Shown in pieces: positions 1,925-46,706 of a DNA stretch of 64,000 bases. The notes beneath the pieces were generated by a model. That model had not been told where the DNA came from, ran no database searches, and worked only from the letters and a program-made list of their open reading frames with translations. Within the stretch, counting starts at the first letter, position 1. Each line of letters starts with the position of its first letter. Source of the DNA: an uncultured Candidatus Saccharibacteria bacterium (lineage in GTDB: Bacteria; Patescibacteriota; Minisyncoccia; Phycocordibacterales; PALSA-1337); the NCBI GenBank assembly GCA_964412585.1, contig CAYPPJ010000005.1, positions 1,512-65,511 on the forward strand. Direction: 5' to 3'. A program made the translations under genes and the position numbers.

Positions 1925-4105
1925 TTATTTTTCTTTCTTCCTTTCCCCCTTCTCCTTCTTAACCTCCTTCTCCGCCCTCTTTTCAATCTCAATCAACTCA
2001 TCTCGTATCAACGCCGCGGTCTCAAAATCCAGCGCCTTGACGGCCTCTTCCATGGCGGCCTGTTTCTGCTTCATCAAGAGCTTAGGATTGGTGCGCGCCA
2101 GTTCTTCATCGATCTTGACGAGCTCATTGACGGCCTTCTCATGCTCGGTACGCAGCTGATCGGTAATATCATGAATAGCTTTCTTGATGGTGACCGGCGT
2201 GATGCCATGCTCCTTATTGTAGGCAATCTGCAGCGCGCGGCGGCGATCGGTCTCCTTGATGGCGCGATCCATGGAACCGGTGAGGTTGTCGGCATAGAGG
2301 ATAACACGGCCGGCGGCATTGCGGGCAGCACGACCGATGGTCTGAATGAGCGCCGTTTCGGAGCGCAAAAAACCTTCCTTGTCGGCATCGAGAATACCGA
2401 TGAGCGAAACTTCAGGCAGGTCCAGTCCCTCGCGCAGGAGGTTGACGCCCACCACGATATCGTACTTCCCTTTGCGGAAATCCGTCAGAATATTGATGCG
2501 CTCGATGGTCTTGATGTCGCTATGCAGATACACCGCCTTGATCTGCTTTTCCTTGAGGAATTCAGAGAGGTCTTCAGCCATTTTCTTGGTTAATGTGGTA
2601 GCGATCACACGGTCGCCACTTTCTATAGTCTTTTGAGCTTCTTCAATGAAGTCAAAGATTTGACCCATGTAGGGAGTTTTTGAACGTTCCTTCGAAGGGG
2701 CCTTCGGACTGAGCGAAGGCGAAGGAGAACGAGCCGCGTCCTCAGCAGAGGACGACGGCGTACCCTGAGGAGGAATGTGCGAAAACTCCCGAATGGGTCT
2801 GATTTCTACAATTGGGTCAATCAATCCAGTAGGTCGAATAACTTGCTCCACCACCTGCTTACTCGTCTCTGCTTCATATTTGCCCGGCGTGGCCGAAGTA
2901 TAGATCATCGGACCCACACGCTCGAGGAATTCATTGAACTTCAGCGGTCGGTTATCTTTTGCCGAAGGCAGTCGGAAGCCATGCTCCACCAACGTATCCT
3001 TGCGCGAAAAGTCACCCGCATACATACCATTGAGTTGCGGGATGGTCACGTGCGATTCATCGATGATGGTCAAAAAATCTGCCACCATTTTGCCCGTCTT
3101 GGGATCTTTCTTTTTTGGGAAGTACGAGAGCAGCGTATCAGGCGGCTCGCCAGGCATCATGCCGGAGAAATGTCGTGAGTAGTTCTCAATGCCGTTGGTA
3201 TAGCCAATCTCCTTGATCATCGAGAGATCGTATTTGACGCGACGCTTGAGGCGCTCGGCTTCGAGCATTTTGCCCGCCTTCTCGAGCTCTTTGAGTCGAC
3301 CGACCAGCTCGGCCTGAATGGTTTTGTAGGCACGCTCACTCTGTTCATCAGTCGAGATAAAGTGCTTGGCCGGAAAAACAAAGATGGTGTCATGTGTGGC
3401 ACGGACCGAGCGCGAGACCGGATCCAGTTCGGTGATGGTAGAAATGCTCGAACCCTCGTATTCGAGTCGATAAATCGTTTTTTCATTGACCGGCATAATC
3501 TCGATAGTATTCCCCACCGCACGGAAGTTGCCGGAGTTCACATCAGCAGTGGTGCGTTCGAAATGAATGTCGATAAGCTTGCGAATAAGTTCAGCGCGCG
3601 ACAGTTCCATGCCCACTTTCAATTTCAAATTCACCTTTTCATATTCCTCCGGACTTCCCAAACCATAGATGCAGGAAACTGAAGCCACAATGATGACATC
3701 TTTACGAGTAAGGAGCGCCTGGGTCGATGCGTGGCGAAGCCTTTCAATTTCTTCGTTGATCATTGCCTCTTTCTCAATGTAGGTATCGCTTGAGGGAATG
3801 TAGGCCTCGGGCTGGTAGTAGTCATAGTACGAAACAAAGTAGTGCACCGCATTGTTGGGGAAAAATTCACGGTACTCCTGGGCAAGCTGGGCTGCGAGCG
3901 TTTTGTTGTGAGCAATGACGAGAGTTGGTTTGCCATATTGAGCAATTACATTGGCGGCCGTAAACGTCTTTCCTGAACCGGTCACACCGAGCAGAGTCTG
4001 ACTATCGAGCCCCTTCTTGAGCCCATCCACCAACGACAAAATAGCCTTTGGCTGGTCGCCGGCTGGTGCGAAGGGAGTGGCTATTTTGAAGGGTGAACTG
4101 CTCAT
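1925..4105 (-). CDS. uvrB: excinuclease ABC subunit B
   Basis: Walker A motif GVTGSGKTFT, helicase motifs, and a C-terminal UVR domain (ALIRDELIEIEKRAE). 726 aa. Contains a ~45 aa Ser/Pro-rich insertion and a Lys/Glu-rich tail. Confidence 0.95.
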   Translation of the reverse strand: MSSSPFKIATPFAPAGDQPKAILSLVDGLKKGLDSQTLLGVTGSGKTFTAANVIAQYGKPTLVIAHNKTLAAQLAQEYREFFPNNAVHYFVSYYDYYQPEAYIPSSDTYIEKEAMINEEIERLRHASTQALLTRKDVIIVASVSCIYGLGSPEEYEKVNLKLKVGMELSRAELIRKLIDIHFERTTADVNSGNFRAVGNTIEIMPVNEKTIYRLEYEGSSISTITELDPVSRSVRATHDTIFVFPAKHFISTDEQSERAYKTIQAELVGRLKELEKAGKMLEAERLKRRVKYDLSMIKEIGYTNGIENYSRHFSGMMPGEPPDTLLSYFPKKKDPKTGKMVADFLTIIDESHVTIPQLNGMYAGDFSRKDTLVEHGFRLPSAKDNRPLKFNEFLERVGPMIYTSATPGKYEAETSKQVVEQVIRPTGLIDPIVEIRPIREFSHIPPQGTPSSSAEDAARSPSPSLSPKAPSKERSKTPYMGQIFDFIEEAQKTIESGDRVIATTLTKKMAEDLSEFLKEKQIKAVYLHSDIKTIERINILTDFRKGKYDIVVGVNLLREGLDLPEVSLIGILDADKEGFLRSETALIQTIGRAARNAAGRVILYADNLTGSMDRAIKETDRRRALQIAYNKEHGITPVTIKKAIHDITDQLRTEHEKAVNELVKIDEELARTNPKLLMKQKQAAMEEAVKALDFETAALIRDELIEIEKRAEKEVKKEKGERKKEK

Positions 4106-4177: not shown

Positions 4178-4214
4178 ACTAACAGTACAGAATCATTGAA
4201 ATAACAGTGGCGCT

Positions 4215-4280: not shown

Positions 4281-4379
4281 CAGGTAGTAAGTAAGTTGTC
4301 TGAACTTAATAGGGGTCATTGGCTGAAAAGTCATTGATCTCTGGACAACGGTACGTGCTACCGACCATGCCCAAAAAGC

Positions 4380-15729: not shown

Positions 15730-16761
15730 TTACACCAACCTCCCCGCCTTTATCACATGCTCCACCAATGTATATGTATACCCCATCTCATTGTCATACC
15801 ACGCCAATACTTTGACTAGATTTCCATCGACCACACGTGTCATCTCGAGATCAGCAATAGATGCATGGCGGTTGCCAATAATGTCATGAGAAACGAGGGG
15901 CTCCTCGGTCACGGTGAAGATACCATTCCAACGAGGATCCTTGGCGGCTTTTTTGAGAAGTGAGTTGACTTCCTCGGCAGTGGTATTTTTCTTTGAGATA
16001 AATGTCACATCGACGATAGAGCCTGCGACTACCGGCACGCGGATAGAGATACCATCAAACTTTCCTTGAAGTTGAGTAGCGACCTTGGTTACGGCGATAG
16101 CGGCGCCAGTTGAAGACGGGACAATATTTTGGGCAGCGGCGCGACCTTCTCGAAGATCTTTCTTTGAAGGACCGTCAACAATAGCTTGTGAAGCTGTATA
16201 GGCGTGAACCGTATTCAAGACTGCTTTTTCAATGCCAAGAGTCTCGCCGAGAATAGCGATGAGTGGCGAACCAGCGTTGGTGGTACATGATGCATTTGAA
16301 GAAATAACACAACCTTCGAGCTTGTCTTCATTCATGCCCATGAGAACAGTCGAGCTCTGGAATGGAGAATCGGGAGCATCCTTCGTTGGCGCAGAAACAA
16401 CTACCCTTTTTGCACCAGCAGTAATATGAGCCTGCGCCTTTTCGGCAGACGTGAAGAGACCAGTCGACTCAACGACTATATCAATACCTAAAGATTTCCA
16501 TGGAAGCTTGGTCGGATCCTTCTCTGAGATAAACTGTACTTCCTGGCCGTCGATAACGAGTGAATTGGTTTTCTCATTTACCGTGACATCAAAAGGGCTG
16601 ACGCCGTAGGCACTATCATACTTCAATAGATAGGCGAAATTCTGAATACTGCCAAGGTCATTGATAGCAACAATCTCCAATTCTTGACGATTTTTGGCGA
16701 CTTTGACGAATGCCCTGCCGATACGACCGAACCCATTGATAGCAACGCGGATTTTTTTCAT
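15730..16761 (-). CDS. gap: glyceraldehyde-3-phosphate dehydrogenase, type I
   Basis: N-terminal MKKIRVAINGFGRIGR Rossmann motif, the catalytic SNASCTTN, and 343 aa. Confidence 0.95.
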   Translation of the reverse strand: MKKIRVAINGFGRIGRAFVKVAKNRQELEIVAINDLGSIQNFAYLLKYDSAYGVSPFDVTVNEKTNSLVIDGQEVQFISEKDPTKLPWKSLGIDIVVESTGLFTSAEKAQAHITAGAKRVVVSAPTKDAPDSPFQSSTVLMGMNEDKLEGCVISSNASCTTNAGSPLIAILGETLGIEKAVLNTVHAYTASQAIVDGPSKKDLREGRAAAQNIVPSSTGAAIAVTKVATQLQGKFDGISIRVPVVAGSIVDVTFISKKNTTAEEVNSLLKKAAKDPRWNGIFTVTEEPLVSHDIIGNRHASIADLEMTRVVDGNLVKVLAWYDNEMGYTYTLVEHVIKAGRLV

Positions 16762-16815
16762 GGAATTAAGGGTAAAAAGCTATGTGGATAACAGTCTTAT
16801 TCTATCATATACACA

Positions 16816-22117: not shown

Positions 22118-22243
22118 GCTTTGCAAATTCCCCTATGCAGCGCTAGGGTTTTCGAACAACAACATAAAGTCACAGCCGTACTCCGCGTACCTCCGTCTTT
22201 TCATGTTGTTGTGAGGAAACCTCTGGCGCTGTATAGGGGAATT

Positions 22244-22837
22244 TTAATACTTCCTGACCACACCAGTCACCTTTGCAGCAATCTTGATATCGTACTCGGG
22301 ATAGATAGGCTTGTAGTTTTTGTTTGCAGGCTCAAGATAGACTTGCCCACCCTTTTTCCTCAAATACTTCATCGTCCAGCCACCGTCCACCTCGGCAATG
22401 ACAATATCTCCTTCGCGAGGGTTCGATGTGCGCTCCGCAACCACCAAGTCTCCTTCTTGGATGCCCGCATCGATCATGGAATCTCCCTTGACCTCAAGCA
22501 GGTAGGTTTTATCTTTGTCATTTATCAAATATTCATCAATACTCAACGTATCAAGTACTGTCTCCTCTGCCACTGTCGGAAAGCCAGCCTCAACAAGCCC
22601 AAGCATAGGAACTTCTCCGATAAGCTTGTTGGGTATCAGGCGACCGCTGGAATCTTTTTCAAGCACACCTTCGCCAATAAGCTTGTTGACGAGCTTGTAA
22701 ACGGCATTTTTGGACTTGAAACCAACCAGCTGCATAATCTCCGCATAACTCGGCATGCGCTTGGTACGTTTGTAGAAAGATATGATTTTGTTCTTGTAAG
22801 AATCACTCATGGGGTTAAGTAACGTTAAGTTGGGCAT
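22244..22837 (-). CDS. lexA: LexA repressor (S24 peptidase family)
   Basis: N-terminal winged HTH. A VEAG-F cleavage region. Ser-Lys dyad context with GDSMIDAGIQEGDLVV and GDIVIAEVDGGWTMKYL. Confidence 0.9.
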   Translation of the reverse strand: MPNLTLLNPMSDSYKNKIISFYKRTKRMPSYAEIMQLVGFKSKNAVYKLVNKLIGEGVLEKDSSGRLIPNKLIGEVPMLGLVEAGFPTVAEETVLDTLSIDEYLINDKDKTYLLEVKGDSMIDAGIQEGDLVVAERTSNPREGDIVIAEVDGGWTMKYLRKKGGQVYLEPANKNYKPIYPEYDIKIAAKVTGVVRKY

Positions 22838-22938
22838 GTATCAATTGTAGCACTTGTGCCGCTCTTACAGTCCACGAAGCAGATACACTCGGGGAGAATA
22901 CATCCGTTTCATAGACTTGAAGCACGGCACAAGTCCAA

Positions 22939-23130
22939 CTAATTGAATGCGAGTGTGAAGAAGCTAAACATCGAACGACGAGGAGCAAGACGAGCAAGCT
23001 GGGCCATCAAGAACCTGTGTCGGAGCGCTTCACGCCTGTACGAAACGCCTTTGATGATGCGGAGGTCAATCTCTTGATTGAGACGATCTATCTCAGCTCG
23101 AATAGTTTTGATGGTTTGATGCTTGCTCAT
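22939..23130 (-). CDS. small hypothetical protein (63 aa) behind the SOS-box promoter, upstream of lexA
   Basis: ATG at 23130 lies 50 nt downstream of the promoter that contains the Cheo box. Helical, basic. Confidence 0.4.
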   Translation of the reverse strand: MSKHQTIKTIRAEIDRLNQEIDLRIIKGVSYRREALRHRFLMAQLARLAPRRSMFSFFTLAFN

Positions 23131-23177
23131 ACTTGTCTTCGTTTATATTGATAAATGCAGTTCACTACTGCCTTATC

Positions 23178-23206
23178 ATTATAGGTGAACTATCGTTCAC
23201 CTGCAA
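23178..23206 (-). promoter_or_regulatory. promoter with a LexA (Cheo-type) operator in the spacer: TTGCAG, then gGTGAACgataGTTCACc, then TATAAT
   Basis: On the minus strand, a -35 TTGCAG, a 17-nt spacer equal to the perfect palindrome AGGTGAAC-TATC-GTTCACCT (GAAC-N4-GTTC core), and a -10 TATAAT. Confidence 0.65.
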
Positions 23207-23286
23207 GTATAAAGGTGTGGACAACCCTTGATTGTGCCTGCTATGGACACAATCAAGGAGCCGTGGCCGGATGGCCATAACCTTAT

Positions 23287-25391: not shown

Positions 25392-25440
25392 CCCCCCCCG
25401 TCGCGCTCCCTAGGAACTTCTTTTCTTCGGAGCGTGATTT

Positions 25441-26583
25441 TTATTTTATTTCTTCTGCGATACCACCTTTCATAACTCGCATTGTAATCGCTCGATCTAC
25501 TTCACAATCACTATTGAACGTAAACGGCCCACTAACGCCAGAGTAGGTGCCGAGTTTATTTATAAGATAGCTTGAAACAGCTTCTGGAGTTTGAGTATCA
25601 GCATTCGCAAGTCCTTGAGCTAATACGCGAATAGAATCATAACTGTTTGCCGCGTGTGGAGACGGATATTCGCCATATCGCTCTTTGTACGCGGATTTGA
25701 AGGAGACAATGTCGGGGTTTTCGCCTTCAGCAGGATCTGATGTATATGCGTAATCTGCGTAAAATACACCCTCCTCAAGGTCCTTATTTTTGAACTGCGG
25801 ATTCATGGTCGTCCAATTCTCACTTACAATAGGCTTCGATAGGCCGAGGTCTCGAATTTGTTTGAACATTGGTTCGACTGTATTGTAAATATTCGTAGTC
25901 ACGAGAATATCATAATCTTTCTCCATGCCCTTGAGTTTGGTAACCTGCGTCCTAAAATCTGAAGCTGCTTGATCGAACTTTTCTTGAGCGACGACTGTAC
26001 CTCCAATTGCTTTCAATCGCTCAATGGTCTTATCTTGAATGCCTTGACCATAATCGTTATTCGGCATCAAAAATGCGACGCGTGGTTTGGAAAACTTTTT
26101 GGCTATAAAATCAGCTAATGCCGGACCATAACTGTCTGCGGTCAACGCAAGACGGCACGTGAGAGGATTGTCGTCTTTATATGCCGGAATTGCGGCCGAT
26201 GGAACAATACCGAGGTTACCATCTGCCCTGATAACAGGCCCCACAGCTGCGGCAGCAGATGATCCGTCAAGAAAGAAGAACTTTATCCCTTGCCCTTTTA
26301 ATTTTTCATATGAAGGAACCGCGCGCTTTGAGTCATAAGCATAATCTTCAATGACGGTCTCAACTTTACGTCCATTTATTCCGCCCGTTTTGTTGATATC
26401 ATCGACTGCCAACGAAATGCCGTTCAGGCTTATTTTTGCAAAAGCAGCTGCTGGACCAGTCGGGAATGATACGACACCGATTTTGATGGTATCGGAAACT
26501 GTCGACTTACGAGAAGATGAAATGACCCAAATTATTATAATTATAACTACAATTCCTATTATAATTTTGGCTGTTTTATTCAT
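25441..26583 (-). CDS. LivK-family (PBP type I) ABC substrate-binding protein, N-terminal TM anchor (paralog 1)
   Basis: N-terminal signal anchor KIIIGIVVIIIIIWVI. Periplasmic-binding fold with a GPxxG loop. Similar to 11 other SBPs in the window. Confidence 0.85.
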   Translation of the reverse strand: MNKTAKIIIGIVVIIIIIWVISSSRKSTVSDTIKIGVVSFPTGPAAAFAKISLNGISLAVDDINKTGGINGRKVETVIEDYAYDSKRAVPSYEKLKGQGIKFFFLDGSSAAAAVGPVIRADGNLGIVPSAAIPAYKDDNPLTCRLALTADSYGPALADFIAKKFSKPRVAFLMPNNDYGQGIQDKTIERLKAIGGTVVAQEKFDQAASDFRTQVTKLKGMEKDYDILVTTNIYNTVEPMFKQIRDLGLSKPIVSENWTTMNPQFKNKDLEEGVFYADYAYTSDPAEGENPDIVSFKSAYKERYGEYPSPHAANSYDSIRVLAQGLANADTQTPEAVSSYLINKLGTYSGVSGPFTFNSDCEVDRAITMRVMKGGIAEEIK

Positions 26584-26588
26584 ATAAT

Positions 26589-27590
26589 TTATATTACTTC
26601 CACCTCACTCCCTTTCACCTGCTTAAGAATAAGCGGTCTCTTATATACTCCGAAACTATCAAACATGCCCGACGAATCAAGCTTCTTTTTTACACACAAT
26701 GCATCTCCATCGCATTCTTTCAACGTGGTCGCCGCAATATGCGCTGCTTGCTTTGATAATTCATAGACTGCACCCTGTGTTCCTCCCAAATCCCCCGCAA
26801 ATGAATAGAATACATCAGGAACCAGTGTACGCACGGCAGGCAACTCGGTAACGTAGGTGCCGAAGATTGGCGCAGTCACGCCAAGCTGACGGATTTTGAT
26901 GACCCCACTTCCAAAAAAGAATGCGGCATCAGGTGAATAGATCGCGTCAGGCTTCTCGGATTTGATTTTTGCCAATTCAGGCGCAACATCAGCTGTATTA
27001 TCAACAAAGGTGTGTTCGATAATTTCACCCTTAAACGCAGCCTTAAAGGCCTTTAGATGCGTTTCAGAAAAAGCATTGCGATAACTTACGACTGCCACCT
27101 TTTTGTAGCCGCGCTCCATCATTTTCTGCGCAATAAATGTAGATTCATTTTCAAGTGAATATTGGACGTTGAAGAACCGCCCGTCACTTTGAGTATAGAG
27201 ATCACTTGAAGCTGCTGAAGGTACCAACACAACTGCACCTGTCTCTTTGATTAACGGAATGACTGCCTCTTGTGGTGAACCGCAAGCCGGACCGATGATA
27301 ACTTGAATTTTTTCGAATTGGACGAGCTTGTTAAATGCGGAGACGGCATCCTTTGGCTCACACTTGTCATCTTCGAATACAAACTGAACGTCCAGCGTTG
27401 ACGAAGCTTCAGCCAAGACACCCTTGCGAATCTCTTCACCATAGTCAGCAAATGGTCCCGAAAGCACCGCAATGACGCCAACACGGAGATTTTTCGCTGT
27501 TGGCTTTTCCCCCTTCGTCGCAATCACCCAGACAATAAAAGCGAGGATGATGGCGGTGATTGTTATTTTAAGGGATTTGTTCATGCGCAT
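26589..27590 (-). CDS. LivK-family ABC substrate-binding protein (paralog 2, shorter)
   Basis: TM anchor and a type I PBP pattern. Confidence 0.8.
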   Translation of the reverse strand: MRMNKSLKITITAIILAFIVWVIATKGEKPTAKNLRVGVIAVLSGPFADYGEEIRKGVLAEASSTLDVQFVFEDDKCEPKDAVSAFNKLVQFEKIQVIIGPACGSPQEAVIPLIKETGAVVLVPSAASSDLYTQSDGRFFNVQYSLENESTFIAQKMMERGYKKVAVVSYRNAFSETHLKAFKAAFKGEIIEHTFVDNTADVAPELAKIKSEKPDAIYSPDAAFFFGSGVIKIRQLGVTAPIFGTYVTELPAVRTLVPDVFYSFAGDLGGTQGAVYELSKQAAHIAATTLKECDGDALCVKKKLDSSGMFDSFGVYKRPLILKQVKGSEVEVI

Positions 27591-27594
27591 GTAC

Positions 27595-36674: not shown

Positions 36675-37751
36675 CTACTTCACATCCACCATCTTCCCTC
36701 CTTGCATCACCATCATCTTTGTATCAGGAAGTCTGTTGCCTGTTGCGCCGAACTTTATTGTGCCGCTCGCTCCGGGGAATGAAATAGTTTTTATGTTTTT
36801 AGTCCAGGTGTCACGATCCGCACTATATGCTTGAGCCAGGATATTGAAAGCGTCATATCCAACGTCAGAGAAGAAACCGGCTTCCACTCCATATCGTGCC
36901 TTGTATGCCGCTTTGAATGCTTCAGTAGAATCCAATTTCATTCCACCGACAATTGCCCCGTCTATAACAGACAGATCTCCGAGAATGCGTTGATAGTCAG
37001 TAAATCCTGAGACGAAACTAGTGTCAAAGAAAAGGGCCGGCTTATTCTTTACCACTTTCAGAAATTCTTTTATAAACTGTGCACCCTGTTGCGGATAGAT
37101 AAACAAGCCAACTGCCTGCGGATTACCTGCCGCAGCCTTCAACGCATGCGTACGGAAATCTTTTTCAGACGCGTCAATCTTAAAATCAGTCGTCGAGCCT
37201 TGGAATCCTTTTTTGAAACTCTCCACGAAACGAACCATGGCATCAAGGTTGGTATACACCAAATTCATCTGTGTGATGCCCTTATTTCTCATATAGACAC
37301 CGTAATCATATTCAGAGACGATGCTATCTGGGAAAAGTCCGAAGACATTGTCATCTGTCGGCTCACGTCCCTGTTCTCCGCCTTGCATGACTGGCATGTG
37401 CGCCTGGGTTACCGTGTCATAAATTGAATCAATAGTTGGTGTCGACGCGTTGATGAGCGCATCGATCTTATTCACATTCACCAACTTCTGATAGGCGCTT
37501 ACTCCCTTGCCGCCACTAAAGCCATCGTCCTCGATAGAGAGATTGATAGGGGCATCCGGATGTTTTGCATTGTACTCTTCATTTGCAAGAACAACTCCAT
37601 TCTTCAAATTTTCTCCGACAGCGGCATAATCACCGCTCAAGATGCTGATAAGTCCGACATTGAAACCTTTTACTGGCGTCTTACTGCCTGTACCAAAGTA
37701 AATAACAACGATTATGATAATAACGATCAGGGCCCAAAGATATTTTTTCAT
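36675..37751 (-). CDS. LivK-family ABC substrate-binding protein (paralog 7)
   Basis: The likely start is MKKYLWALIVIII at 37751. PBP type I. Confidence 0.85.
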   Translation of the reverse strand: MKKYLWALIVIIIIVVIYFGTGSKTPVKGFNVGLISILSGDYAAVGENLKNGVVLANEEYNAKHPDAPINLSIEDDGFSGGKGVSAYQKLVNVNKIDALINASTPTIDSIYDTVTQAHMPVMQGGEQGREPTDDNVFGLFPDSIVSEYDYGVYMRNKGITQMNLVYTNLDAMVRFVESFKKGFQGSTTDFKIDASEKDFRTHALKAAAGNPQAVGLFIYPQQGAQFIKEFLKVVKNKPALFFDTSFVSGFTDYQRILGDLSVIDGAIVGGMKLDSTEAFKAAYKARYGVEAGFFSDVGYDAFNILAQAYSADRDTWTKNIKTISFPGASGTIKFGATGNRLPDTKMMVMQGGKMVDVK

Positions 37752-37905
37752 GGAGACACTATACCATATACCAAAGCACACGCTATTTTAGTCAAAAAAT
37801 ATGATATTTGAATAGTCACAATAGCCCTCAATGTAATGCTCAAATCAATTTTACTAAAATATCATCAGAATTGCTGATAAATATAAAGTGTGCTAGAAAG
37901 AGTCT

Positions 37906-38640
37906 ATGGATACCATACAGCGAACACTCATCGAAGCGGGCTTTACTGACAAAGAAGCCGTCGTATACCTTACCCTCTTGAGTTGTGGAAGCGCCTCGGC
38001 ATATACTGTCGCTGAAAAATCAGGACTCAAACCTTCCACCAGTTATCTAACTCTTTACAACCTCACTCGCAAAGGCCTTGTATCTACTATTCCACGCGCC
38101 AAGAAAAAACTCTTTATTGCAAAAGATCCCCGTGAAGTCATCTCCTATCTTGAAGAACGAACTGCTCGTGCTAAGCGTGCTTTGCCGGAGATGCTTTCAC
38201 TTATTCCTGCTCATGTACCAAAACTCAAGATTCAGTACTTTCAAGGCATGAAGGGTGTTCAGGAGGCTCTCAACTATGGCATCACGCACAAAATACCTAC
38301 GACAGAAATCGTCGGCTTCTATGCCAGTGGCAGTCGTGTGGAACGTCAATATATGGATATGTCAGTCCAATTTATGCGCAGTCTCAAAAAGCGCGGTGTC
38401 CGTGTGCGTGGTATTACGCCAGATGATGCAACCATCCGCGAGATCAAGAAGCTCAACGATACGCTCGGTCATGAGCTACGCACGATTCCCCTTTCAGAAT
38501 ATTCAGCGCAGGCTTCGATAGAGGCTGAAGACAAGCTCGTGCGCATCATTCTCAACAATGACCAGCGTGCACTCATCATCGAAGATGCTGAGCTTGCCAG
38601 CATGGTCAAACAGATTTTTGAGATGGTGTGGAAGAAATAA
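37906..38640 (+). CDS. TrmB-family transcriptional regulator (copy 1)
   Basis: N-terminal wHTH EAGFTDKEAVVYLTLLSCGSASAYTVAEKSGLKPSTSYLTLYNLTRKGLV, typical of TrmB. C-terminal effector-like domain. Confidence 0.7.
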   Translation: MDTIQRTLIEAGFTDKEAVVYLTLLSCGSASAYTVAEKSGLKPSTSYLTLYNLTRKGLVSTIPRAKKKLFIAKDPREVISYLEERTARAKRALPEMLSLIPAHVPKLKIQYFQGMKGVQEALNYGITHKIPTTEIVGFYASGSRVERQYMDMSVQFMRSLKKRGVRVRGITPDDATIREIKKLNDTLGHELRTIPLSEYSAQASIEAEDKLVRIILNNDQRALIIEDAELASMVKQIFEMVWKK

Positions 38641-39792
38641 TTATTCTACTTTGACAAACTTCCCTGCGCGAACAGTTTGCATCTCGAATGCGTTCTCCGG
38701 CGTAGCAACGAAACCCATGGCATCAAACGACAGGTCATCGTATGCTACACCCTTCAATCCTTTCATATCAGCCAACGTCTTTTGCAACGCCTCACCGCCC
38801 TGCCCATTTGTTTTTTTGAGTCCCCAGGCAATCACTTGAACTGCATCATATGCCGTAGCGGCGGAAGGAAACTTTGGATACTCACCAAATCGCACCTTAA
38901 ATTTCTCCGCAAATGCTTTGTATCTTTCAGTTTGAACTGGAGTACTAAAGTATCTATTCTCCATTAATTTGGCGCATTGAGATAATGACGTCGGATCACC
39001 AGATGATTCAGTCCCTAAGGTAATACCTTTGTAGCCAAGTTGTGCCACCTGCTTCAAAAACGTGCATTGATTGTAATCGCTTGAAACAATGAAAATGGCT
39101 TCTGGTTTTTTCTGCATTGTGCGAGCTAGATTTGTCTTGAAATCAAGCTCCAACGGATTGCCCATGTCAATCTCGTCGATAACGGTCACTCCATAATTGG
39201 AGGCTTCTTTTTTGAATATACTTGCGGTGTATTCCCAGAATCCAGCAGCAACGGGTTTGATTATAGAAACTCTCTTTATACCACGTTTTTGAGCGAATCG
39301 AAGTAATTCACGAATACCAACTCGATTGTCATACCACGTTGAGAAAAAGTACGGATTATCATGATCTTTCTCGAGCATCGGACTACTATCCGCACCAACT
39401 GTCGGAACTTTTGCCGCCTCAATTATTGGCAATATGGGAAAAGCAGGCTCATCCCATTGTGGGCCGACGATGGCAGTTACCTTGTCTACAGATATCAGTT
39501 TTTGCGCAACAGCTACTACAACCTTAAGTTTATCTAGAGAGACGTCTTCACTGATCAATTCAAGTGGTTGTCCATTAATCCCACCTGACTCATTTATTTC
39601 GGTAACAGCCAAAGCTGCGCCACGTCGTTCCTCTTCGCCGATCGCTACACCAACACCAGTTAGCGCAGAAATTCCTCCAATTTTTATTGGTTGATTTTTA
39701 TTAGGAGATTGCGGTGCTCTTTGGCTCACAGCAACTCCGATAACAATAAGTGCGACAACAGCAATAAGTATTTTTGTAGTATTCGTTTTCAT
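38641..39792 (-). CDS. LivK-family ABC substrate-binding protein (paralog 8)
   Basis: TM anchor and a PBP type I fold. Confidence 0.85.
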   Translation of the reverse strand: MKTNTTKILIAVVALIVIGVAVSQRAPQSPNKNQPIKIGGISALTGVGVAIGEEERRGAALAVTEINESGGINGQPLELISEDVSLDKLKVVVAVAQKLISVDKVTAIVGPQWDEPAFPILPIIEAAKVPTVGADSSPMLEKDHDNPYFFSTWYDNRVGIRELLRFAQKRGIKRVSIIKPVAAGFWEYTASIFKKEASNYGVTVIDEIDMGNPLELDFKTNLARTMQKKPEAIFIVSSDYNQCTFLKQVAQLGYKGITLGTESSGDPTSLSQCAKLMENRYFSTPVQTERYKAFAEKFKVRFGEYPKFPSAATAYDAVQVIAWGLKKTNGQGGEALQKTLADMKGLKGVAYDDLSFDAMGFVATPENAFEMQTVRAGKFVKVE

Positions 39793-39814
39793 TGGATTAG
39801 TGCGTATTTACGAT

Positions 39815-39837
39815 AAAAACCTTGGTTCGCCCAAGGT
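39815..39837. promoter_or_regulatory. 9-bp perfect palindrome AAACCTTGG-ttcgc-CCAAGGTTT abutting the -35 TTGACA of the TrmB copy 2 promoter
   Basis: Read directly. It sits in a divergent intergenic region, so it is not a terminator. Candidate operator. Confidence 0.4.
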
Positions 39838-39917
39838 TTGACAGCAGTATATAAAATGGTAATATGTATGCAAACTCTCCTGTTTGGGAGAGTAAATATC
39901 ATAAAATTATTACGTTG

Positions 39918-40673
39918 ATGAACACCTCCATCCTAAAAAATTACGGCCTCAATAGGAATGACATCGCCGTCTATGACGCACTCCTTCGACTTGGACGATC
40001 AAAAACTGGACCTATTATCCACGGGACCGATATTGTCAGTTCCCGCGTGTATGAATCACTCCGCATCCTCGTTTCGCGCGGACTTGTCTCTTACCAGGTC
40101 AAAAACAATATCAAATACTATCAAGCCGAGTCCCCCGACCAGCTCATCGATGAAGCCGGCAAGAATATTGGTGAACTAAAAACTCTGGCAAAAGATATCG
40201 ACTCCTTTTCTATTCCCCTTCCCTCACGTAACGACGCCAATATATTCGAAGGTAGACATGGATTTAAGATGGCTTTCACACAGCACATAGAACACATAAA
40301 AAGGGGTGAGAAAGTTTCTATCATCGGCTTTTCGCACCGCGCATATCTAAAAGGCGCCGGTAGTCGTGAACTTCGATCATTTTTTACCAACAGCGACACT
40401 CTCATGATGCCCAAGAAAGCTCATGCTCGACTCCTTACTGAACGTGAACTTATGCCCATACTCACCAAGGAACGCATTGATTCGTCCATTTACAACATTA
40501 AATATTTGCCATCTGGATATTTTGGACCCTGCGCGGTCAATATCTCTGAAACAGAAGTCCTGCTTTCTGTATGGGGCGAGAGTCCAATTGTATTTAGTAT
40601 CAAAAACCCAACTGTCGTAAAGACATTTCAGAAAAACTTTGACTTTTTGTGGGGACTGGCGAAGAAGAAATAA
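39918..40673 (+). CDS. TrmB-family transcriptional regulator (copy 2)
   Basis: The wHTH NYGLNRNDIAVYDALLRLGRSKTGPI begins at the internal Met 39918. The ORF opens at 39864. Confidence 0.65.
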   Translation: MNTSILKNYGLNRNDIAVYDALLRLGRSKTGPIIHGTDIVSSRVYESLRILVSRGLVSYQVKNNIKYYQAESPDQLIDEAGKNIGELKTLAKDIDSFSIPLPSRNDANIFEGRHGFKMAFTQHIEHIKRGEKVSIIGFSHRAYLKGAGSRELRSFFTNSDTLMMPKKAHARLLTERELMPILTKERIDSSIYNIKYLPSGYFGPCAVNISETEVLLSVWGESPIVFSIKNPTVVKTFQKNFDFLWGLAKKK

Positions 40674-40750
40674 AAGGGTCAACTGCCCATCCGGGTATGA
40701 AAAAAGGAGTCACGCTCTCACTGCGTGACTCCTTCAAACCAACATCTCGA

Positions 40751-41533
40751 TTAGAACTTGAGACTGATGCCCCCCGAAACGACGGCATCTGTTTCCCGAC
40801 TATCGCGCACCGTGAGTGGTACGTAATAGCTGATCCTCGGAAGGATCAGGGAAATGTGCGAAGTGACCTTCCAGTCGGCTTCGACACATCCTTTGAGCAG
40901 AAACCCGTTATCAAATCCGAATCCGCCATCGTCGTAAGTACACGACAATGAGCAGAACAGACTGAGTGGGGTTTTTGGTACCGGGCGAAAGGTGCTCGCA
41001 CCCACCGAATAAAGGTTTCCCCCTTCGAAAGTGCTGCCCGGCGCCACCGTGTAGTTCTCGAACAAAGCGAACACGTTCACCTTGTCGATACTCTTGGTGA
41101 GTTTGACATGGCTGTACCACACATCGCCAGGACCGAAGGAGAAAACCCCCGGTTCGTCGAAGTAGGTTATGCCCAAGTCAACCACCAAGTCGCCGGCCTG
41201 ACCCTTGAGACCAAACTTGCTCAGCGGACCAGACCATCCGAGGCCGTAGTCCATTTCGCTCGCGAAGTTTTCATTCCACGGGCTGTGACCGACGGGGGCC
41301 GAGTGCCAGAGTAAGGCATAGGCACCGTTGTTCAACGTCATAACCAGGTCCGACTGAACGACCGGCTTTCCGTAGAACAGGGCTCCGTTACCAAAACCAA
41401 GGTATTTATCCGCAACGACGCTACTCGCCGTCACCGACGATATACCCCAGGGTGCGTTTGTTTCGCCCGCAGCACAAGCTACGTGCGTCGCGACAAAAAG
41501 CGCGACACTGATACTGACAATGATCTTTTTCAT
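40751..41533 (-). CDS. secreted beta-rich protein with a signal peptide and a C-terminal Phe (outer-membrane-protein-like)
   Basis: Signal peptide MKKIIVSISVALFVATHVACA. Alternating Gly/aromatic beta-strand pattern, ending in SLKF. Higher GC than its neighbours. Confidence 0.45.
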   Translation of the reverse strand: MKKIIVSISVALFVATHVACAAGETNAPWGISSVTASSVVADKYLGFGNGALFYGKPVVQSDLVMTLNNGAYALLWHSAPVGHSPWNENFASEMDYGLGWSGPLSKFGLKGQAGDLVVDLGITYFDEPGVFSFGPGDVWYSHVKLTKSIDKVNVFALFENYTVAPGSTFEGGNLYSVGASTFRPVPKTPLSLFCSLSCTYDDGGFGFDNGFLLKGCVEADWKVTSHISLILPRISYYVPLTVRDSRETDAVVSGGISLKF

Positions 41534-41706
41534 AATTTCTTTCCGATTACAGCATTTCAGAGTTGTTTACCAACGATATGACGGAATTATAGCAAACTTT
41601 ACACTATTTGTCAATATTTTATATTGACTATATGCCGTTTTTTTGATACAGTTTTGCGGAATTTGAACCCGCTTTTATCGTTAAGGCGGTACCCTGAAAA
41701 CAGCAT

Positions 41707-42465
41707 ATGAACAAGCCACCTACGGCAACAACCGGCGAGCCTCAATACCGTGTTCGACTTGCCCACAACCTGTCCGAAATTCGTGCGGCAATGGCACTCC
41801 GGTATCGAGTCTTCTACGAAGAAATGGGTGAGGGTTCAGAGAATCCCCTCGGTCTCGACCAAGACCCTTTTGATATGGCTTGCCAGCATATCAACGTGTA
41901 TGACCAGCACGATCAAGTCATCGGTACCTACCGTATGCAAACGGGAAAAATGGCAGCACAGAATCTTGGCTATTACTTTGCCAATGAATTCGAAATGGAA
42001 CCCTTCGAACCAATTCGGGGAGAAATCCTCGAACTTGGACGGGCATGCATTGCACGCGAACACCGCAAACCCGGCGTGCTTTCCTATCTATGGAGCGGTA
42101 TCGCAGATTATGCGGGACTACATGGGGTTCGGTACCTTATCGGGTGCAGCTCGATTCACACGGTTGAACCCGCTGACGGTAATGCGGTATGGGAGCATCT
42201 TGAACGTAAAGGCTTCCTTGTGGACTCCCGTTTTGCCACGGCACCCCTGGCTCACGGCTCATGTGGTAATGTGCCACCAAGCCCGAAACTTCCCGAAATT
42301 CCCAAGCTCTTCGGTCTCTACCTGACCATTGGAGCAAAGGTCTGCAGTCGGCCGTTCATTGATAGCAGTTTCAAAACCATTGATTTTTTGACTCTGCTCG
42401 ACCTTAAGGAGGTCCCACCCCGCGTCGCTCAACGATACTTGAAGCGTGTCAAAATCGGCACATGA
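41707..42465 (+). CDS. GNAT-family N-acyltransferase (OlsB / N-acyl amino-acid synthase-like, Acetyltransf_5 type)
   Basis: LRYRVFYEEMGEG and GTYRMQTG motifs, characteristic of OlsB/NAS hemolysin-like acyltransferases. 252 aa. Confidence 0.55.
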   Translation: MNKPPTATTGEPQYRVRLAHNLSEIRAAMALRYRVFYEEMGEGSENPLGLDQDPFDMACQHINVYDQHDQVIGTYRMQTGKMAAQNLGYYFANEFEMEPFEPIRGEILELGRACIAREHRKPGVLSYLWSGIADYAGLHGVRYLIGCSSIHTVEPADGNAVWEHLERKGFLVDSRFATAPLAHGSCGNVPPSPKLPEIPKLFGLYLTIGAKVCSRPFIDSSFKTIDFLTLLDLKEVPPRVAQRYLKRVKIGT

Positions 42466-42526
42466 CATAGCGTGACAAAGCAAACACCCAGTTGGAAGTT
42501 CCAGCTGGGCGTTTTTATTTTACATT

Positions 42527-43393
42527 TTACAACCTATATTCCCCCACCAATCCCTGCGGTCTATACAACATGAGTAGTATCAAAATAACTCCATACACCA
42601 CCTGTCTCATTTGCGCCGCAATATCTGATGGAAAACCGACAAAACGGAGGATCTCTGGCAACAGGATCAGACAGACGGCGCCAAGCACCGCACCTTTGTT
42701 GTTCGCCAATCCGCCAAGAATAACGATGGCCAGCAAGAAGATAGATTCATTCAAGGTGAATGTCGATGGATCGATGAAGGTAATGTAACTCGCGAACAAT
42801 GCACCGGCCACCGAAGCTAGCACCGCGCCGATAACAAAGATGGCAAGTTTGTACCAGAGTGTGTGGTAACCAAAGACACGGATTGCTTCTTCATCTTCAC
42901 GGATGGCTTTGAGAACACGACCAAATGACGAGCGAGTCACAAAGACACAAACACCATAGACCAGAAGTCCGAGTACAATAGCAAGAATCAGAAATGATAA
43001 GTTGTCGGAAAAAGTAAAGCCAAACAATGATGGACGTGGGATGCCCGGAATGCCGAGAGGGCCGCGAGTCAGACTTTGCCAATTCAAGAAGACACTGTAA
43101 ATAATGACATTGAAGCCGAATGAGCCGAGCGCGTAATAGTCGTCTTTGAATTTGGACAACACAAACCCAATCGCCAGTGACAACACAGCGGTGATGATCA
43201 TACCGATAATCAGGGCCACAAAGAAATTCATCCCTGTGGTCGTCAACAAGATGGCCGTGACGTATGCACCGATACCATAGAATGCCGCCTGCGTGATCGA
43301 AAGCAGTCCTGCATAGCCGACTATGAGGTTAAGCGACAACCCGAGGATGCCGTAGATGCAGATGAGTATGGCGAGGTGGATGAGGTATTCCAT
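42527..43393 (-). CDS. livM: branched-chain amino acid ABC transporter permease LivM-like
   Basis: 8-10 TM helices with conserved LivM segments (GYAGLLSITQAAFYGIGAY, LTRGPLGI). Confidence 0.85.
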   Translation of the reverse strand: MEYLIHLAILICIYGILGLSLNLIVGYAGLLSITQAAFYGIGAYVTAILLTTTGMNFFVALIIGMIITAVLSLAIGFVLSKFKDDYYALGSFGFNVIIYSVFLNWQSLTRGPLGIPGIPRPSLFGFTFSDNLSFLILAIVLGLLVYGVCVFVTRSSFGRVLKAIREDEEAIRVFGYHTLWYKLAIFVIGAVLASVAGALFASYITFIDPSTFTLNESIFLLAIVILGGLANNKGAVLGAVCLILLPEILRFVGFPSDIAAQMRQVVYGVILILLMLYRPQGLVGEYRL

Positions 43394-43394
43394 G

Positions 43395-44468
43395 TTAATT
43401 CCAAATTTCTATTGTTGTCGGTAATACAATATCTCCATTGGGCTGTATTTTTACTTTCTCATATTTACCTTCGAAAGTCCCCAAGTTCTTGATGTACTGT
43501 ATCAACGTCTGAGGATCACGGGATCCAGTCTTTTTAACAGCGTCGACAAGTAATTCCAAATCTGTGTACGCCACATAGCCGAGCGGTGAGACGTCATTGC
43601 CGTATTTAGCTTTATAATCAGTGCTGAATTGCGGATTTAATACATATTTCTGATACTTCAATCCTTGTGCACTATCACCAGCAATCTTCTGCGCATCTGG
43701 CGTAAGACCAAACCCAACGCCAGCATACATCGCTCCAGTATAGCCAAGTTCTTTTGTTTGTTTTATAACAACACCGGCCGCGGATCCAAATACCCCATAT
43801 ACAAACGCGTCAGGATTTTGTGACTTCAATTTTGTAATCTGTGATTTAAAATCTGCCGACTTGTTATCAATTGCCTCAGAAGAAACAATGACGCCCTGTT
43901 GAGTGAGAATATCAGTAAGAAGCTTATTGAACACAACCCCCCATTCATCCTGCTGATATACAATAGCAACTTTCTTCCTTCCATCTTTCATCAACGAATC
44001 CGAAATAACATCTGCCCCTCCCGACGCGGTACTACTGTGGCGTAATATAAATTCTGTATTATTGGTCAAATCCGGATGAGTGGCATTGGCCCACAGTATC
44101 GCGTTCTTCCTCTCTTCAACCAAAGGTTTAAGAGCCATACTATCTGAAGATATTATGGTAAACACGACAATATCTTTTTTGACATCTGTAAGCAGATTGA
44201 ATGCAGCAATCGCCTTCTTTTGATCAGTTCCCGAATCTTCTATGTCGAGCTGAATAGGAAAACCGCCCGCATTCAGTTCGTCAGCCTTGAATTGATACCC
44301 ATTCCTAACTATCTCGCCAACACCTGCACCAGGACCTGACAATGCCAATACGGCACCAACTTTCAGCGGTACGCTTGTCGATACAATACTTTGTTTGGAG
44401 CTTGAAAGCGCCCACACAATAACTGCGAGTGCTGCCAGGATTATGATTATCCAAATAATTTTCTTCAT
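43395..44468 (-). CDS. LivK-family ABC substrate-binding protein (paralog 9)
   Basis: TM anchor and a PBP type I fold. Confidence 0.85.
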   Translation of the reverse strand: MKKIIWIIIILAALAVIVWALSSSKQSIVSTSVPLKVGAVLALSGPGAGVGEIVRNGYQFKADELNAGGFPIQLDIEDSGTDQKKAIAAFNLLTDVKKDIVVFTIISSDSMALKPLVEERKNAILWANATHPDLTNNTEFILRHSSTASGGADVISDSLMKDGRKKVAIVYQQDEWGVVFNKLLTDILTQQGVIVSSEAIDNKSADFKSQITKLKSQNPDAFVYGVFGSAAGVVIKQTKELGYTGAMYAGVGFGLTPDAQKIAGDSAQGLKYQKYVLNPQFSTDYKAKYGNDVSPLGYVAYTDLELLVDAVKKTGSRDPQTLIQYIKNLGTFEGKYEKVKIQPNGDIVLPTTIEIWN

Positions 44469-44474
44469 AATGAT

Positions 44475-45341
44475 TTATTTCTTCAAAATTCCCTGCGGTC
44501 TCCACAACAGGAAAATAATAAGTACAGCAAACGCAATGGCGTCTTTCCATTCTCCTGAAATCTTCCAGATACCAAAGTTCTCGACGAAACCGAGGAAGAA
44601 TGCACCCAGTACGCCACCATATATATTACCAATACCGCCGATAATAGAAGCGATCACACCTTTGAGCAACAAGGACATACCCATGGTCGGCTCGATGCCA
44701 GTGTCGAAACCTATCAGGATACCCGCAAGACCCGCGATCGAAGAACCGATGAAGAAAATCCACCCAATAACTTTCGGCGTATTGATACCCACAATCTTTG
44801 AAACTTCTTCATCGTCACTCACCGCTTTGACGGCTTTGCCGAAGATGGTGAACTTGAGAACGAGAGCCATGATGGCCATGATCACAATACCGCAGATGAG
44901 GATGATGAGCTGTACTTCGGTGATGACACCGCCAAAAATATCGTAGACCTTCCCCGCTCCCGCACTCTGCGACAGTGTCTGAAACTGGCTAGTGAAAAGA
45001 ATGGCGATGATTGCCTGGATTGCCGTAAAGGCGCCGAGCGAACCAACAAGGAGCACCATACCAGATGATTTGCGAGCACGGAGCGGAGAGTAAATAAATT
45101 TGTAGAGCAAGAATCCGAGGATGCCGGCAATCAAGAAGCCAAGGATGATGGAAAGATAGAGGTTGAGGCCGAGGGTCTTGTAGAAATAGTAGACCGAGTA
45201 TCCACCAACCGCCGTGAGCGCGCCATAGCCGAGGTCAAAGAATTTGACGGTTCCGTAGATGAGATTAAAACCGAGGGCAACCATGGTATAGATTGCTCCG
45301 GCAATGATACTGTTCACAATCAGTTGAGGAATGATGTCCAT
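44475..45341 (-). CDS. livH: branched-chain amino acid ABC transporter permease LivH-like
   Basis: IIAGAIYTMVALGFNLIYG is a typical LivH N-terminus. Polytopic. Confidence 0.85.
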   Translation of the reverse strand: MDIIPQLIVNSIIAGAIYTMVALGFNLIYGTVKFFDLGYGALTAVGGYSVYYFYKTLGLNLYLSIILGFLIAGILGFLLYKFIYSPLRARKSSGMVLLVGSLGAFTAIQAIIAILFTSQFQTLSQSAGAGKVYDIFGGVITEVQLIILICGIVIMAIMALVLKFTIFGKAVKAVSDDEEVSKIVGINTPKVIGWIFFIGSSIAGLAGILIGFDTGIEPTMGMSLLLKGVIASIIGGIGNIYGGVLGAFFLGFVENFGIWKISGEWKDAIAFAVLIIFLLWRPQGILKK

Positions 45342-45419
45342 GAATGGTTGTGGTTGTAGCGCTATAAATATATACCAAAACCCGCTCTGTGGCGAGCGGG
45401 TTTTGTTGATTACGTTTCA

Positions 45420-46535
45420 TTACTGACTGATAGTCACCGGCTTTCCATCCTTTATCATACGAAGCACAGCCTTGGTGATAACCACATGGTCAGGACCAAT
45501 TTCGATATTGTCACCGAGAGCTCCGTCGTAGTCTTTGATTTCCGCAATTGCGTGAGCAAGTTGTGTTGTGGTCGGCTTGACTGTGCCATCAAATGTTTCG
45601 GCTGCTTGCACAACCATCTTGGTAATGTCGTAGGCGTTTGGTGTACCGATAGATACTGGCTTTCCATATTCAGCGAAGTAATGATCAGAAAATGCTTTGG
45701 TTGGGTCAGCGGCGTTCACATACCAGAGTCCTTCGAAAATCGCAGGAGTGTCCGAAAGTTCAAATGACTCAATCGCGGTGATCGGTGTCTTTACGCCAAG
45801 CTCTTTGATCTGCGCATTCAAGACTTCGAGTTCCGGCGAAAACATACAGATAACAAAGTAATCTGAACCTGATGCTTTCGCTTTGGCGATTGCAGTTCTA
45901 AAATCCTTAGTTCCAAAATTTGAGATGTCCTCAGAAACAACGGTAATGCCTGTTCCCGGAAGCTGTTTCCTCAACTCATCGAACACGGCAGTAATGCCAG
46001 AAATAGTCTGACCGAACAGTGAGATCTTCTTGATACCACGCTTCTTGGCTTCGGCAAGAAATACCTTTATCTCTTCTTTTGGTGGGGTCCAGTTGGTAAA
46101 GTTGAATTCACCCTTAGCGATAGCTGGGTCAGAAGCCGTGCTGATATGAACAATCTTCATTTTCTCGGCAATCGGATTGGCAACACCGCCAGCTGCCGAG
46201 GCAACCGTAGAAACTACGTCTACTTTATCAATATTGATCAGCTTGTTGAGTGCCGTCGCGGTCTTTGCGGGAGTAAAGGCATCATCTTCAAACAATACTT
46301 CATAGTTGTACTTCGTATCTGTTGCCTTAATATCCTTCAACGCCAACTCGGCAGATCGCTTCATGCCTTCACCAAGATATGATGCTCCACCTGACAACGG
46401 TAGAACGAAACCAATCTTAATAGTCTCCTTGGCAGCTGGCTGTACGGGAGCCTTTGTTGAGGCCAGTGAGATAATCACGAGGACGATGATCACAATCGCC
46501 ACGATGCTTCCAATAATTTTTGATGTTTTACTCAT
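45420..46535 (-). CDS. LivK-family ABC substrate-binding protein (paralog 10)
   Basis: TM anchor and a PBP type I fold. Confidence 0.85.
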   Translation of the reverse strand: MSKTSKIIGSIVAIVIIVLVIISLASTKAPVQPAAKETIKIGFVLPLSGGASYLGEGMKRSAELALKDIKATDTKYNYEVLFEDDAFTPAKTATALNKLINIDKVDVVSTVASAAGGVANPIAEKMKIVHISTASDPAIAKGEFNFTNWTPPKEEIKVFLAEAKKRGIKKISLFGQTISGITAVFDELRKQLPGTGITVVSEDISNFGTKDFRTAIAKAKASGSDYFVICMFSPELEVLNAQIKELGVKTPITAIESFELSDTPAIFEGLWYVNAADPTKAFSDHYFAEYGKPVSIGTPNAYDITKMVVQAAETFDGTVKPTTTQLAHAIAEIKDYDGALGDNIEIGPDHVVITKAVLRMIKDGKPVTISQ

Positions 46536-46706
46536 AAAAGTGTGTATTAATAGTACGCCATGAGTATAGCAGATATGTCTATACTGTTACTTGGATGTGT
46601 GAATATATTTACTTGCATATGGCTCAGCAAGGCCAAATCCACCTATATAATGATATTTTGTTCGTAAGAAGTGACAAAAATATGATTATGTGTTACTATA
46701 CTAAGC

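Follow-up and report, generated by a model that had tools for sequence, protein, structure and literature searches.

A small-protein gene strictly linked to lexA in Patescibacteria lies behind a candidate LexA operator accompanied by a DnaA-box-like element

LexA autoregulation through a GAAC-N4-GTTC-type box is classical. This motif is the core of the Gram-positive SOS box, whose consensus is CGAAC-N4-GTTCG, and small, non-homologous division inhibitors encoded next to lexA are a recurring theme that includes SosA of Staphylococcus aureus (77 amino acids, aa), YneA of Bacillus subtilis and SulA (PMC11442139). DnaA also regulates transcription, at Escherichia coli uvrB and recN together with LexA (Wurihan et al. 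2018, as summarised in PMC8203912), and the small replication-checkpoint protein Sda of B. subtilis has a DnaA-controlled promoter (PMC8203912). Here we describe a promoter, P1, that combines a candidate LexA operator with a DnaA-box-like element and precedes a 63-aa open reading frame (the small ORF) and lexA in a stretch of 64,000 nucleotides (nt) from an uncultured Candidatus Saccharibacteria bacterium (the window; assembly GCA_964412585.1, contig CAYPPJ010000005.1, positions 1,512 to 65,511). The Patescibacteria, or candidate phyla radiation, account for a large share of bacterial diversity, almost none of them has been cultured and their cell-cycle control is essentially unknown. Their SOS network has reportedly been compared across the group by Sanchez-Osuna, Barbe and Erill (Environ Microbiol 2017;19:3465; cited in PMC8565304), a study that presumably defines the LexA motif of these bacteria.

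The minus-strand sequence of the promoter region reads acTTGCAGgtgaacgatagttcaccTATAATgataagg, and the coordinates of its elements and of the neighbouring features are collected in Table 1. P1 is a sigma-70-type promoter as judged from the presence of both hexamers and from their spacing, which lies within 16–18 nt (a spacer of 17 nt, 23200..23184). An earlier interpretation of the letters by themselves (the sequence-only reading) had described a perfect palindrome exactly filling this spacer. The palindrome, the hexamers and the 17-nt distance stand as described; the word "exactly" does not, since the palindrome spans the full spacer and extends into both hexamers, by 2 nt at the -35 element and by 1 nt at the -10 element. 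A scan for consensus promoters misses P1 because its -35 element matches TTGACA at only 3/6 positions, and the scan was rejected as evidence against the promoter. Within the window the palindrome has no second copy, even with three mismatches permitted. The bare core GAAC-N4-GTTC occurs four times against 1.3 expected, with four or more copies in 7/100 shuffles, an enrichment that is not convincing; the remaining three matches lie inside ORFs. The palindrome is held to stand above chance because of its conservation, not because of window statistics.

Conservation was assessed in 42 genome loci carrying relatives of the small ORF and in seven further loci of distant family members, and promoters were compared across 49 related small ORFs. 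The layout of TTGACA or TTGCAG, GGTGAAC-N4-GTTCACC and TATAAT or TATACT is present in 40/40 genome loci with enough upstream sequence, and the loci of the distant members all show the same promoter–operator arrangement. Across the 49 promoters the arms GTGAAC and GTTCAC are essentially invariant while the centre is free, with at least 19 different tetramers, which argues for the site of a dimeric protein rather than an RNA stem. Synonymous sites of the adjacent small ORF are saturated (dS, the synonymous divergence, ranges from 0.4 to >2), so the persistence of the operator is due to selection. The sequence-only reading had equated the core with the Cheo-box core of Gram-positive LexA, and this identification holds, GAAC-N4-GTTC being the Gram-positive SOS-box core (PMC11442139). 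The flanking C and G of CGAAC...GTTCG are not present; the flanks are T and A (GGTGAAC...GTTCACC) in 49/49 promoters.

The second gene behind P1 encodes a true LexA, as the same reading had proposed. The protein scores 130.4 bits against the TIGR00498 equivalog (cutoff 110.95), matches the Peptidase_S24 domain at 7.9e-29 and aligns with E. coli LexA across both domains, with Ala75-Gly76, Ser111 and Lys148 conserved (188-aa numbering) and with VEAGFP aligned to VAAGEP, GDSM to GMSM and TMKYL to TVKRL. At the N-terminus PF01726, the winged-helix DNA-binding domain of LexA, reaches 21.1 bits, below its cutoff of 23.7, although the phmmer alignment to E. coli LexA spans residues 20–80 of this domain. 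Because relatives align from residue 10, the start codon homologous to theirs is the ATG at 22810, which gives a protein of 188 aa.

A further link between the palindrome and this LexA comes from a metagenome scan with the query GGTGAACNNNNGTTCACCV. Its output was mostly noise, with at least about 110 chance-level or terminator-like hits in unrelated genomes of high GC content; among the matches listed are additional copies of the operon and two loci, L067 and L077, with lexA and no small ORF. At L067 the operator lies directly before a leaderless lexA (GC content 0.39, 50% identity), and at L077 (498-2770) GGTGAAC-N4-GTTCACC lies 13 nt before a lexA (GC content 0.61, 40% identity) that is followed by a Y-family polymerase gene. 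The presumed recognition helix reads RSKNAVSKL in the LexA of L067 and RSKAAVSKL in that of L077, compared with KSKNAVYKL in the window. The presence of the operator before lexA without the small ORF, combined with this common helix, suggests that the site travels with this type of LexA, and the L077 locus suggests that the type is not confined to Patescibacteria. The palindrome is accordingly assigned, with high confidence, as a putative LexA operator. It is very improbable that some repressor other than LexA uses the site, or that the palindrome arose by chance or for structural reasons. Such a reading could appeal to the lack of a second site near the other repair genes searched, but the motif stays with lexA whether or not a lineage has the small ORF, it contains the Gram-positive LexA core, and essentially invariant arms around a free centre point to binding by a protein dimer rather than to an RNA stem.

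Outside these promoters, the 42 genome loci (289 kb) contain no further copy of GTGAAC-N4-GTTCAC. Nor does the motif recur in 353 kb of related DNA, in which the bare core is found at chance level, with 8 copies. The best-looking other core match, at L034:303, was rejected as an operator: it lies inside a DEAD-box helicase gene, and core matches occur at chance. The genes recA, uvrA and dinB are absent from the loci sample used for the operator search, and a motif search of the loci for DnaA, RecA, UvrA, DinB, FtsZ and Nrd signatures returned one weak match to the Nrd pattern, in L001. Two other occurrences of operator-like sequence were noted. A perfect promoter–operator, TTGACGGTGAACATTTGTTCACCTATAAT, is present on a groundwater contig (L068, 9717-9750) whose sequence shows no obvious ORF over more than the next 1 kb; it may belong to the regulon as a non-coding or otherwise atypical member. 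Four unrelated metagenome contigs (L065, L090, L149 and L161; GC content 0.39-0.42) carry a repeated element, gagtcagaaaccccgtccacgtctggtga(a/c)GGTGAAC(GTAA/ATAA)GTTCACCgaatcat.

The small ORF is a real, translated and conserved gene as judged from its homologues and their divergence. A word-indexed search found 74 homologues, from Candidatus Taylorbacteria, Paceibacterota and Parcubacteria assemblies, which places the window in a Taylorbacteria/Paceibacteria-like genome, and a profile search of 1.8 billion representatives found 335 clusters, all of 48-130 aa; the family is so far confined to Patescibacteria. The first 50 codons are under purifying selection, with ratios of non-synonymous to synonymous divergence (dN/dS) of 0.02-0.18. 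In eight relatives the layout is leaderless, the -10 element ending 6-7 nt before the ATG of the small ORF, a geometry that is hard to explain other than by a real promoter and real translation. The description of the 63-aa product as uncharacterised also remains correct, as searches of Pfam, NCBIfam, PHROGs, PADLOC and PDB sequences with the small protein gave no family match. Its family has three parts: an N-terminal block of about 50 residues with the consensus MSKHQAIKTIRxEIxRLNQEIDLRIIKGVSYRREALRHK, a variable basic linker, and a hydrophobic, aromatic C-terminal end such as ...VSAFLF, which in the window reads ...FFTLAFN. The AlphaFold model is a helical hairpin (helices 3-27 and 32-48; predicted local distance difference test score, pLDDT, 84) with a disordered tail, and comparison of its fold gave generic matches only. 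The tail was considered as an amphipathic membrane-targeting helix and rejected as such, its hydrophobic moment being barely above that of shuffles; it is for this reason described merely as a hydrophobic/aromatic tail.

Linkage of the small ORF to lexA is strict. An S24/LexA gene is next on the same strand in 39/39 informative genome loci, the other 3/42 ending at a contig edge and hence being uninformative, and the distant members show the same gene order wherever their contigs extend far enough. Genes flanking the pair vary between loci, which defines the conserved unit as promoter, small ORF and lexA. The distance between the two genes is 1-25 nt in about 12 loci, which indicates co-transcription as an operon and probably coupled translation, and 100-250 nt in the window and its closest relatives (L001-L004, L006, L007 and L009). 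L014 and L022 (~4205-4600) have an additional ORF, of about 125 aa (MDDYKGVIIEESL...), that separates the small ORF from lexA.

Table 1. Features of the small ORF–lexA locus, in window coordinates (MFE, minimum free energy)
Feature	Coordinates	Strand	Remarks
Two stem-loops after the upstream 325-aa gene	23226..23282	-	stop codon of the gene ends 23287; MFE -31.1 kcal/mol, z = -5.5
DnaA-box-like 9-mer TTGTCCACA	23224..23216	-	8/9 match to TTATCCACA; 9 nt upstream of the -35 element
P1 -35 element TTGCAG	23206..23201	-	3/6 positions as in TTGACA; relatives have TTGACA or TTGCAG at the same position
Candidate LexA operator AGGTGAAC-TATC-GTTCACCT	23183..23202	+ (coordinates)	20-bp perfect palindrome, core GAAC-N4-GTTC
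P1 -10 element TATAAT	23183..23178	-	6/6 consensus match; relatives have TATAAT or TATACT
Predicted leader, ~41 nt	23131..23171	-	weak 5-bp hairpin GCAGU...ACUGC, -6 kcal/mol, z = -1.5, not significant
Small ORF, 63 aa	22939..23130	-	net charge +8; conserved unnamed family
Intergenic RNA hairpin, 33 bp	22852..22934	-	MFE -49.6 kcal/mol, z = -8.1; specific to the window's Taylorbacteria-like clade
P2, extended -10 TGcTACAAT	22852..22844	-	6 nt before the lexA ATG at 22837
lexA, 197 aa from first ATG (22837)	22244..22837	-	TIGR00498, Peptidase_S24
120-nt hairpin between convergent lexA and ABC-ATPase (ATP-binding cassette) genes	22125..22244		-62.7 kcal/mol, z = -9.4

The second conserved element of P1 is the 9-mer that precedes the -35 element and resembles the DnaA-box consensus TTATCCACA (PMC8203912). 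Among the 49 related promoters the exact consensus is found in 34 and a form with one mismatch in 13. Its orientation is the same in 46/49, it ends 14-16 nt before GTGAAC in 42/49, and the distance to the -35 element is fixed at 7-9 nt in the promoter comparison. TTATCC[AC]CA is present in 38 copies within 200 nt upstream of the small ORF, compared with eight elsewhere in the 289 kb. A role for TTATCCACA as a general promoter element was rejected: it shows no enrichment across the whole window and is rare elsewhere in the loci. At the lexA-only loci L067 and L077 there is no DnaA-like box at the canonical place. On balance these data favour, by a modest degree, a putative DnaA site. The element might instead be the site of a different regulator, or an upstream promoter (UP) element, a possibility of appreciable though lesser weight. 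There is only one box, a fixed distance of 7-9 nt to the -35 element is typical of activator and UP-element positions, and the variants TTATCCCCA and TATTCCACA depart from the canonical CACA. Set against this are the 34/49 promoters with the exact consensus 9-mer, the confinement of the element to these promoters but for eight other copies in 289 kb, which is not the behaviour of a general promoter feature, and its placement, inverted in L109 and 0-19 nt from the -35 element in the distant members, which suits an autonomous protein site better than a UP element. The window variant TTGTCCACA, moreover, is the mycobacterial form of the DnaA box. Separately, an exact TTATCCACA lies at 16783..16791 (-) in the predicted leader of gap (15730..16761), just after an extended -10 element TGaTAGAAT; at this gene the 9-mer is exact, and in the leader, in 2/7 loci (the window and L009), and is degenerate or elsewhere in five.

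Upstream of P1, the stem-loops behind the 325-aa gene probably terminate its transcription, in which case P1 would be independent of it. Strong hairpins without a U-tract follow many genes of the window, including this upstream gene and lexA, and that between lexA and the convergent ABC-ATPase gene is probably a bidirectional terminator. Downstream, the leader of the small ORF, whose start is placed by inference from the position of the -10 element, contains no clear Shine-Dalgarno sequence. An Rfam scan found a tRNA only, with no match for the leader or the intergenic hairpin. In three loci (L007 3868-4000, L009 3852-4000 and L025 3859-4000) the leader of the small ORF holds a structured-looking insert of about 80 nt with the common string gtttagcaggcgctac, which pushes the operator to 133-149 nt before the ATG.

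The wider gap between the small ORF and lexA in the window clade is occupied by the 33-bp hairpin. Compensatory changes are present at 15/33 pairs among seven genomes, the apical sequence UUCCCCGAG is invariant, and conserved G-U pairs indicate that the structure forms in the sense-strand RNA, where it may terminate, attenuate or process the P1 transcript. An extended -10 element, TGnTAYAAT, is found right after the hairpin in most of nine clade members and is less clear in L003 and L004; its spacing to the lexA ATG is leaderless in the window, L001 and L006. Promoters of the gap gene in seven loci are of the same type, TGnTAnAAT. No operator is found near P2. Conservation of an extended -10 element without an operator suggests that lexA of this clade probably also has its own promoter, P2. 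The sequence-only reading had the operator promoter drive both the small ORF and lexA. As an account of the operon it is borne out by the roughly 12 relatives in which the genes lie close together; for the window it needs amending, given the probable promoter of lexA's own. That reading had also held that a separate lexA promoter, together with a small ORF not conserved or not translated, would count against it: the small ORF is conserved and predicted to be translated, while P2 is probable. P2, the hairpin and the DnaA-like box go unmentioned in it, and its observations on the palindrome and lexA are unaffected.

Taken further, the small ORF of the window could effectively be a monocistronic SOS gene, with the hairpin ending or processing the P1 transcript and lexA expressed mainly from P2 and not autoregulated. 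We consider this nearly as probable as its converse. In strength the hairpin equals those that follow neighbouring genes, which likewise lack a U-tract, TGnTAYAAT is kept right after it in most clade members, the spacing between P2 and the ATG is leaderless in three of them (the window, L001 and L006), and the gap gene uses the same type of promoter. Yet without a U-tract read-through is possible, the G-U pairs speak for sense transcription only, and most relatives clearly co-transcribe both genes. In L043 (~1360-1430) a degenerate second copy of the promoter–operator, TTGACAGGTAAGCACTCGTTCACG, lies between the small ORF and lexA, so that an operator-like site is retained there at the second promoter.

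Together these observations support a model in which P1 would be repressed by the LexA encoded downstream and probably modulated by DnaA, with the small protein as its first product. As a whole we somewhat favour this model; of its parts, induction of the small ORF in the SOS response is quite probable, slightly less so than the operator assignment itself. A LexA dimer on GGTGAAC-N4-GTTCACC would block RNA polymerase at P1, and DNA damage would free the promoter through RecA-stimulated self-cleavage of LexA. The 63-aa basic helical-hairpin protein would then be made and, where the genes abut, new LexA would be co-produced and reset the switch, giving autoregulation in most lineages. DnaA at the single 9-mer upstream of the -35 element may modulate P1, whose output would then reflect the state of replication in addition to damage. 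In the window clade, the inserted hairpin and the operator-less extended -10 element probably provide a damage-independent basal supply of LexA. The small protein itself may be a short-lived effector that holds up the cell cycle through a block on division or initiation, with the hydrophobic C-terminal tail as a handle for membrane, partner or protease.

The role of the small protein as an SOS or replication-stress checkpoint effector is proposed only tentatively, and the cell-division inhibitor offered as an example in the sequence-only reading is likewise a guess. The effector role is suggested by the repeated finding that small, lineage-specific, LexA-controlled genes beside lexA are division inhibitors, by the DnaA-type box, which accompanies the small ORF and not lexA, and by the tail, which could serve as a membrane, partner or protease handle. 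The small gene adjoins lexA under a candidate LexA operator, as do members of the SulA/YneA/SosA/SidA class. Several observations weigh against the model or this role. The window's uvrB (1925..4105, -) has no such box upstream, as had been noted before, and as neither the window nor the 289 kb of loci contains a second operator, the existence of a wider regulon is unproven. Expression of lexA in the window may be decoupled from P1 by the hairpin and P2. The DnaA-type box is single, while DnaA-regulated promoters often have several; that of the window has one mismatch, and in nine relatives the box reads TTATCCCCA. The small protein lacks a transmembrane segment and resembles no known inhibitor, and its tail is not clearly amphipathic (mean z 0.5 compared with shuffles). 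Finally, tight co-translation with LexA fits a LexA partner equally well as an effector.

The last point leads to the main rival for the role of the small protein, that of a LexA/RecA accessory factor, a stoichiometric partner that would strengthen LexA binding or tune RecA-dependent cleavage. The small helical co-repressor gp7 of phage GIL01, DinI and RecX are analogues of such a factor. We consider it unlikely overall. The strict gene order, with genes often 1-3 nt apart, suggests coupled equimolar synthesis, the small ORF is never found without lexA where the contig allows a judgement, and the protein is predicted to be small and helical. However, LexA with the same operator occurs without the small ORF in L067 and L077, the inserted hairpin and separate promoter of the window clade loosen any stoichiometry, and neither the sequence nor the predicted fold of the small protein matches gp7, DinI or RecX. 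A nucleic-acid-binding role, in which a nucleoid- or RNA-associated protein protects or compacts DNA during damage without acting as a cell-cycle brake, is more improbable still. The mean net charge of the family, about +8.5, is in keeping with it, and the predicted antiparallel helical hairpin resembles the tRNA-binding arm of seryl-tRNA synthetase, with non-significant scores only. Against such a role, the protein matches no nucleic-acid-binding family significantly, in structure or in sequence, and the conserved hydrophobic C-terminal tail would be left unexplained.

Whichever function applies, the small-protein family locked to lexA, the conserved DnaA-type box and the clade-specific hairpin with P2 appear to go beyond the classical picture of LexA autoregulation. 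The compact cis-module of DnaA-type box, -35 element, LexA operator and -10 element, conserved while synonymous sites are saturated, offers a testable entry point, as does the unannotated family of 335 clusters adjoining lexA. Should the small protein be the SOS checkpoint effector, it would be a new answer to a problem that SulA, YneA, SosA and SidA have each solved independently; should the box bind DnaA, joint control by DnaA and LexA would be widely conserved; and if the protein instead partners LexA, it would parallel, on the chromosome, the LexA modulators that phages encode. The broadest form of the preferred proposal, in which a Patescibacteria-wide small protein acts as a cell-cycle brake of these host-dependent, ultra-small cells at a promoter combining LexA damage and DnaA replication signals and one clade separates the brake from the repressor, is speculative and rather unlikely to hold in full. 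Elsewhere in the window, at ~25400..50900, about 12 paralogous genes of 330-400 aa with lipoprotein-like N-termini are interspersed with ABC transporter components and look, by eye, like LivK-type solute-binding proteins.

Compared with the described systems, the small ORF shares with sda a very small product, a promoter with a DnaA-box sequence and, as proposed here, a response to replication or DNA stress. Sda forms a helical hairpin; it has no sequence relationship to the small protein, and its targets are sporulation kinases. The bacteria considered here are expected to lack sporulation, and the sda promoter has several DnaA boxes and is not known to have a LexA box. The closest precedent for the promoter is that of E. 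coli uvrB and recN, as summarised for those genes, where a DnaA box and a LexA operator are present at one promoter. Here both sites are candidates, the first of them DnaA-like, and the arrangement, described from sequence, differs in lying at a lexA-linked small gene and in being kept across a genome family.

For the small gene, the resemblance is to sosA, yneA and sulA, likewise small, lineage-restricted, LexA-controlled genes beside lexA whose products have a common function without sequence likeness (PMC11442139). The small ORF differs from them in lying ahead of lexA in the same orientation rather than divergently, and its product has no transmembrane helix, LysM domain or SulA fold, the model being a soluble helical hairpin. 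For the regulatory unit, the nearest system is the autoregulated lexA of Gram-positive bacteria, with which it has in common the GAAC-N4-GTTC core (PMC11442139), an operator overlapping the promoter of a lexA-containing unit and a LexA of the predicted S24 self-cleaving type with conserved Ala-Gly, Ser and Lys. It departs from that system in its operator arms, GGTGAAC/GTTCACC instead of CGAAC/GTTCG, in the small gene that precedes lexA, and in the operator-less promoter that lexA of the window clade has seemingly gained.

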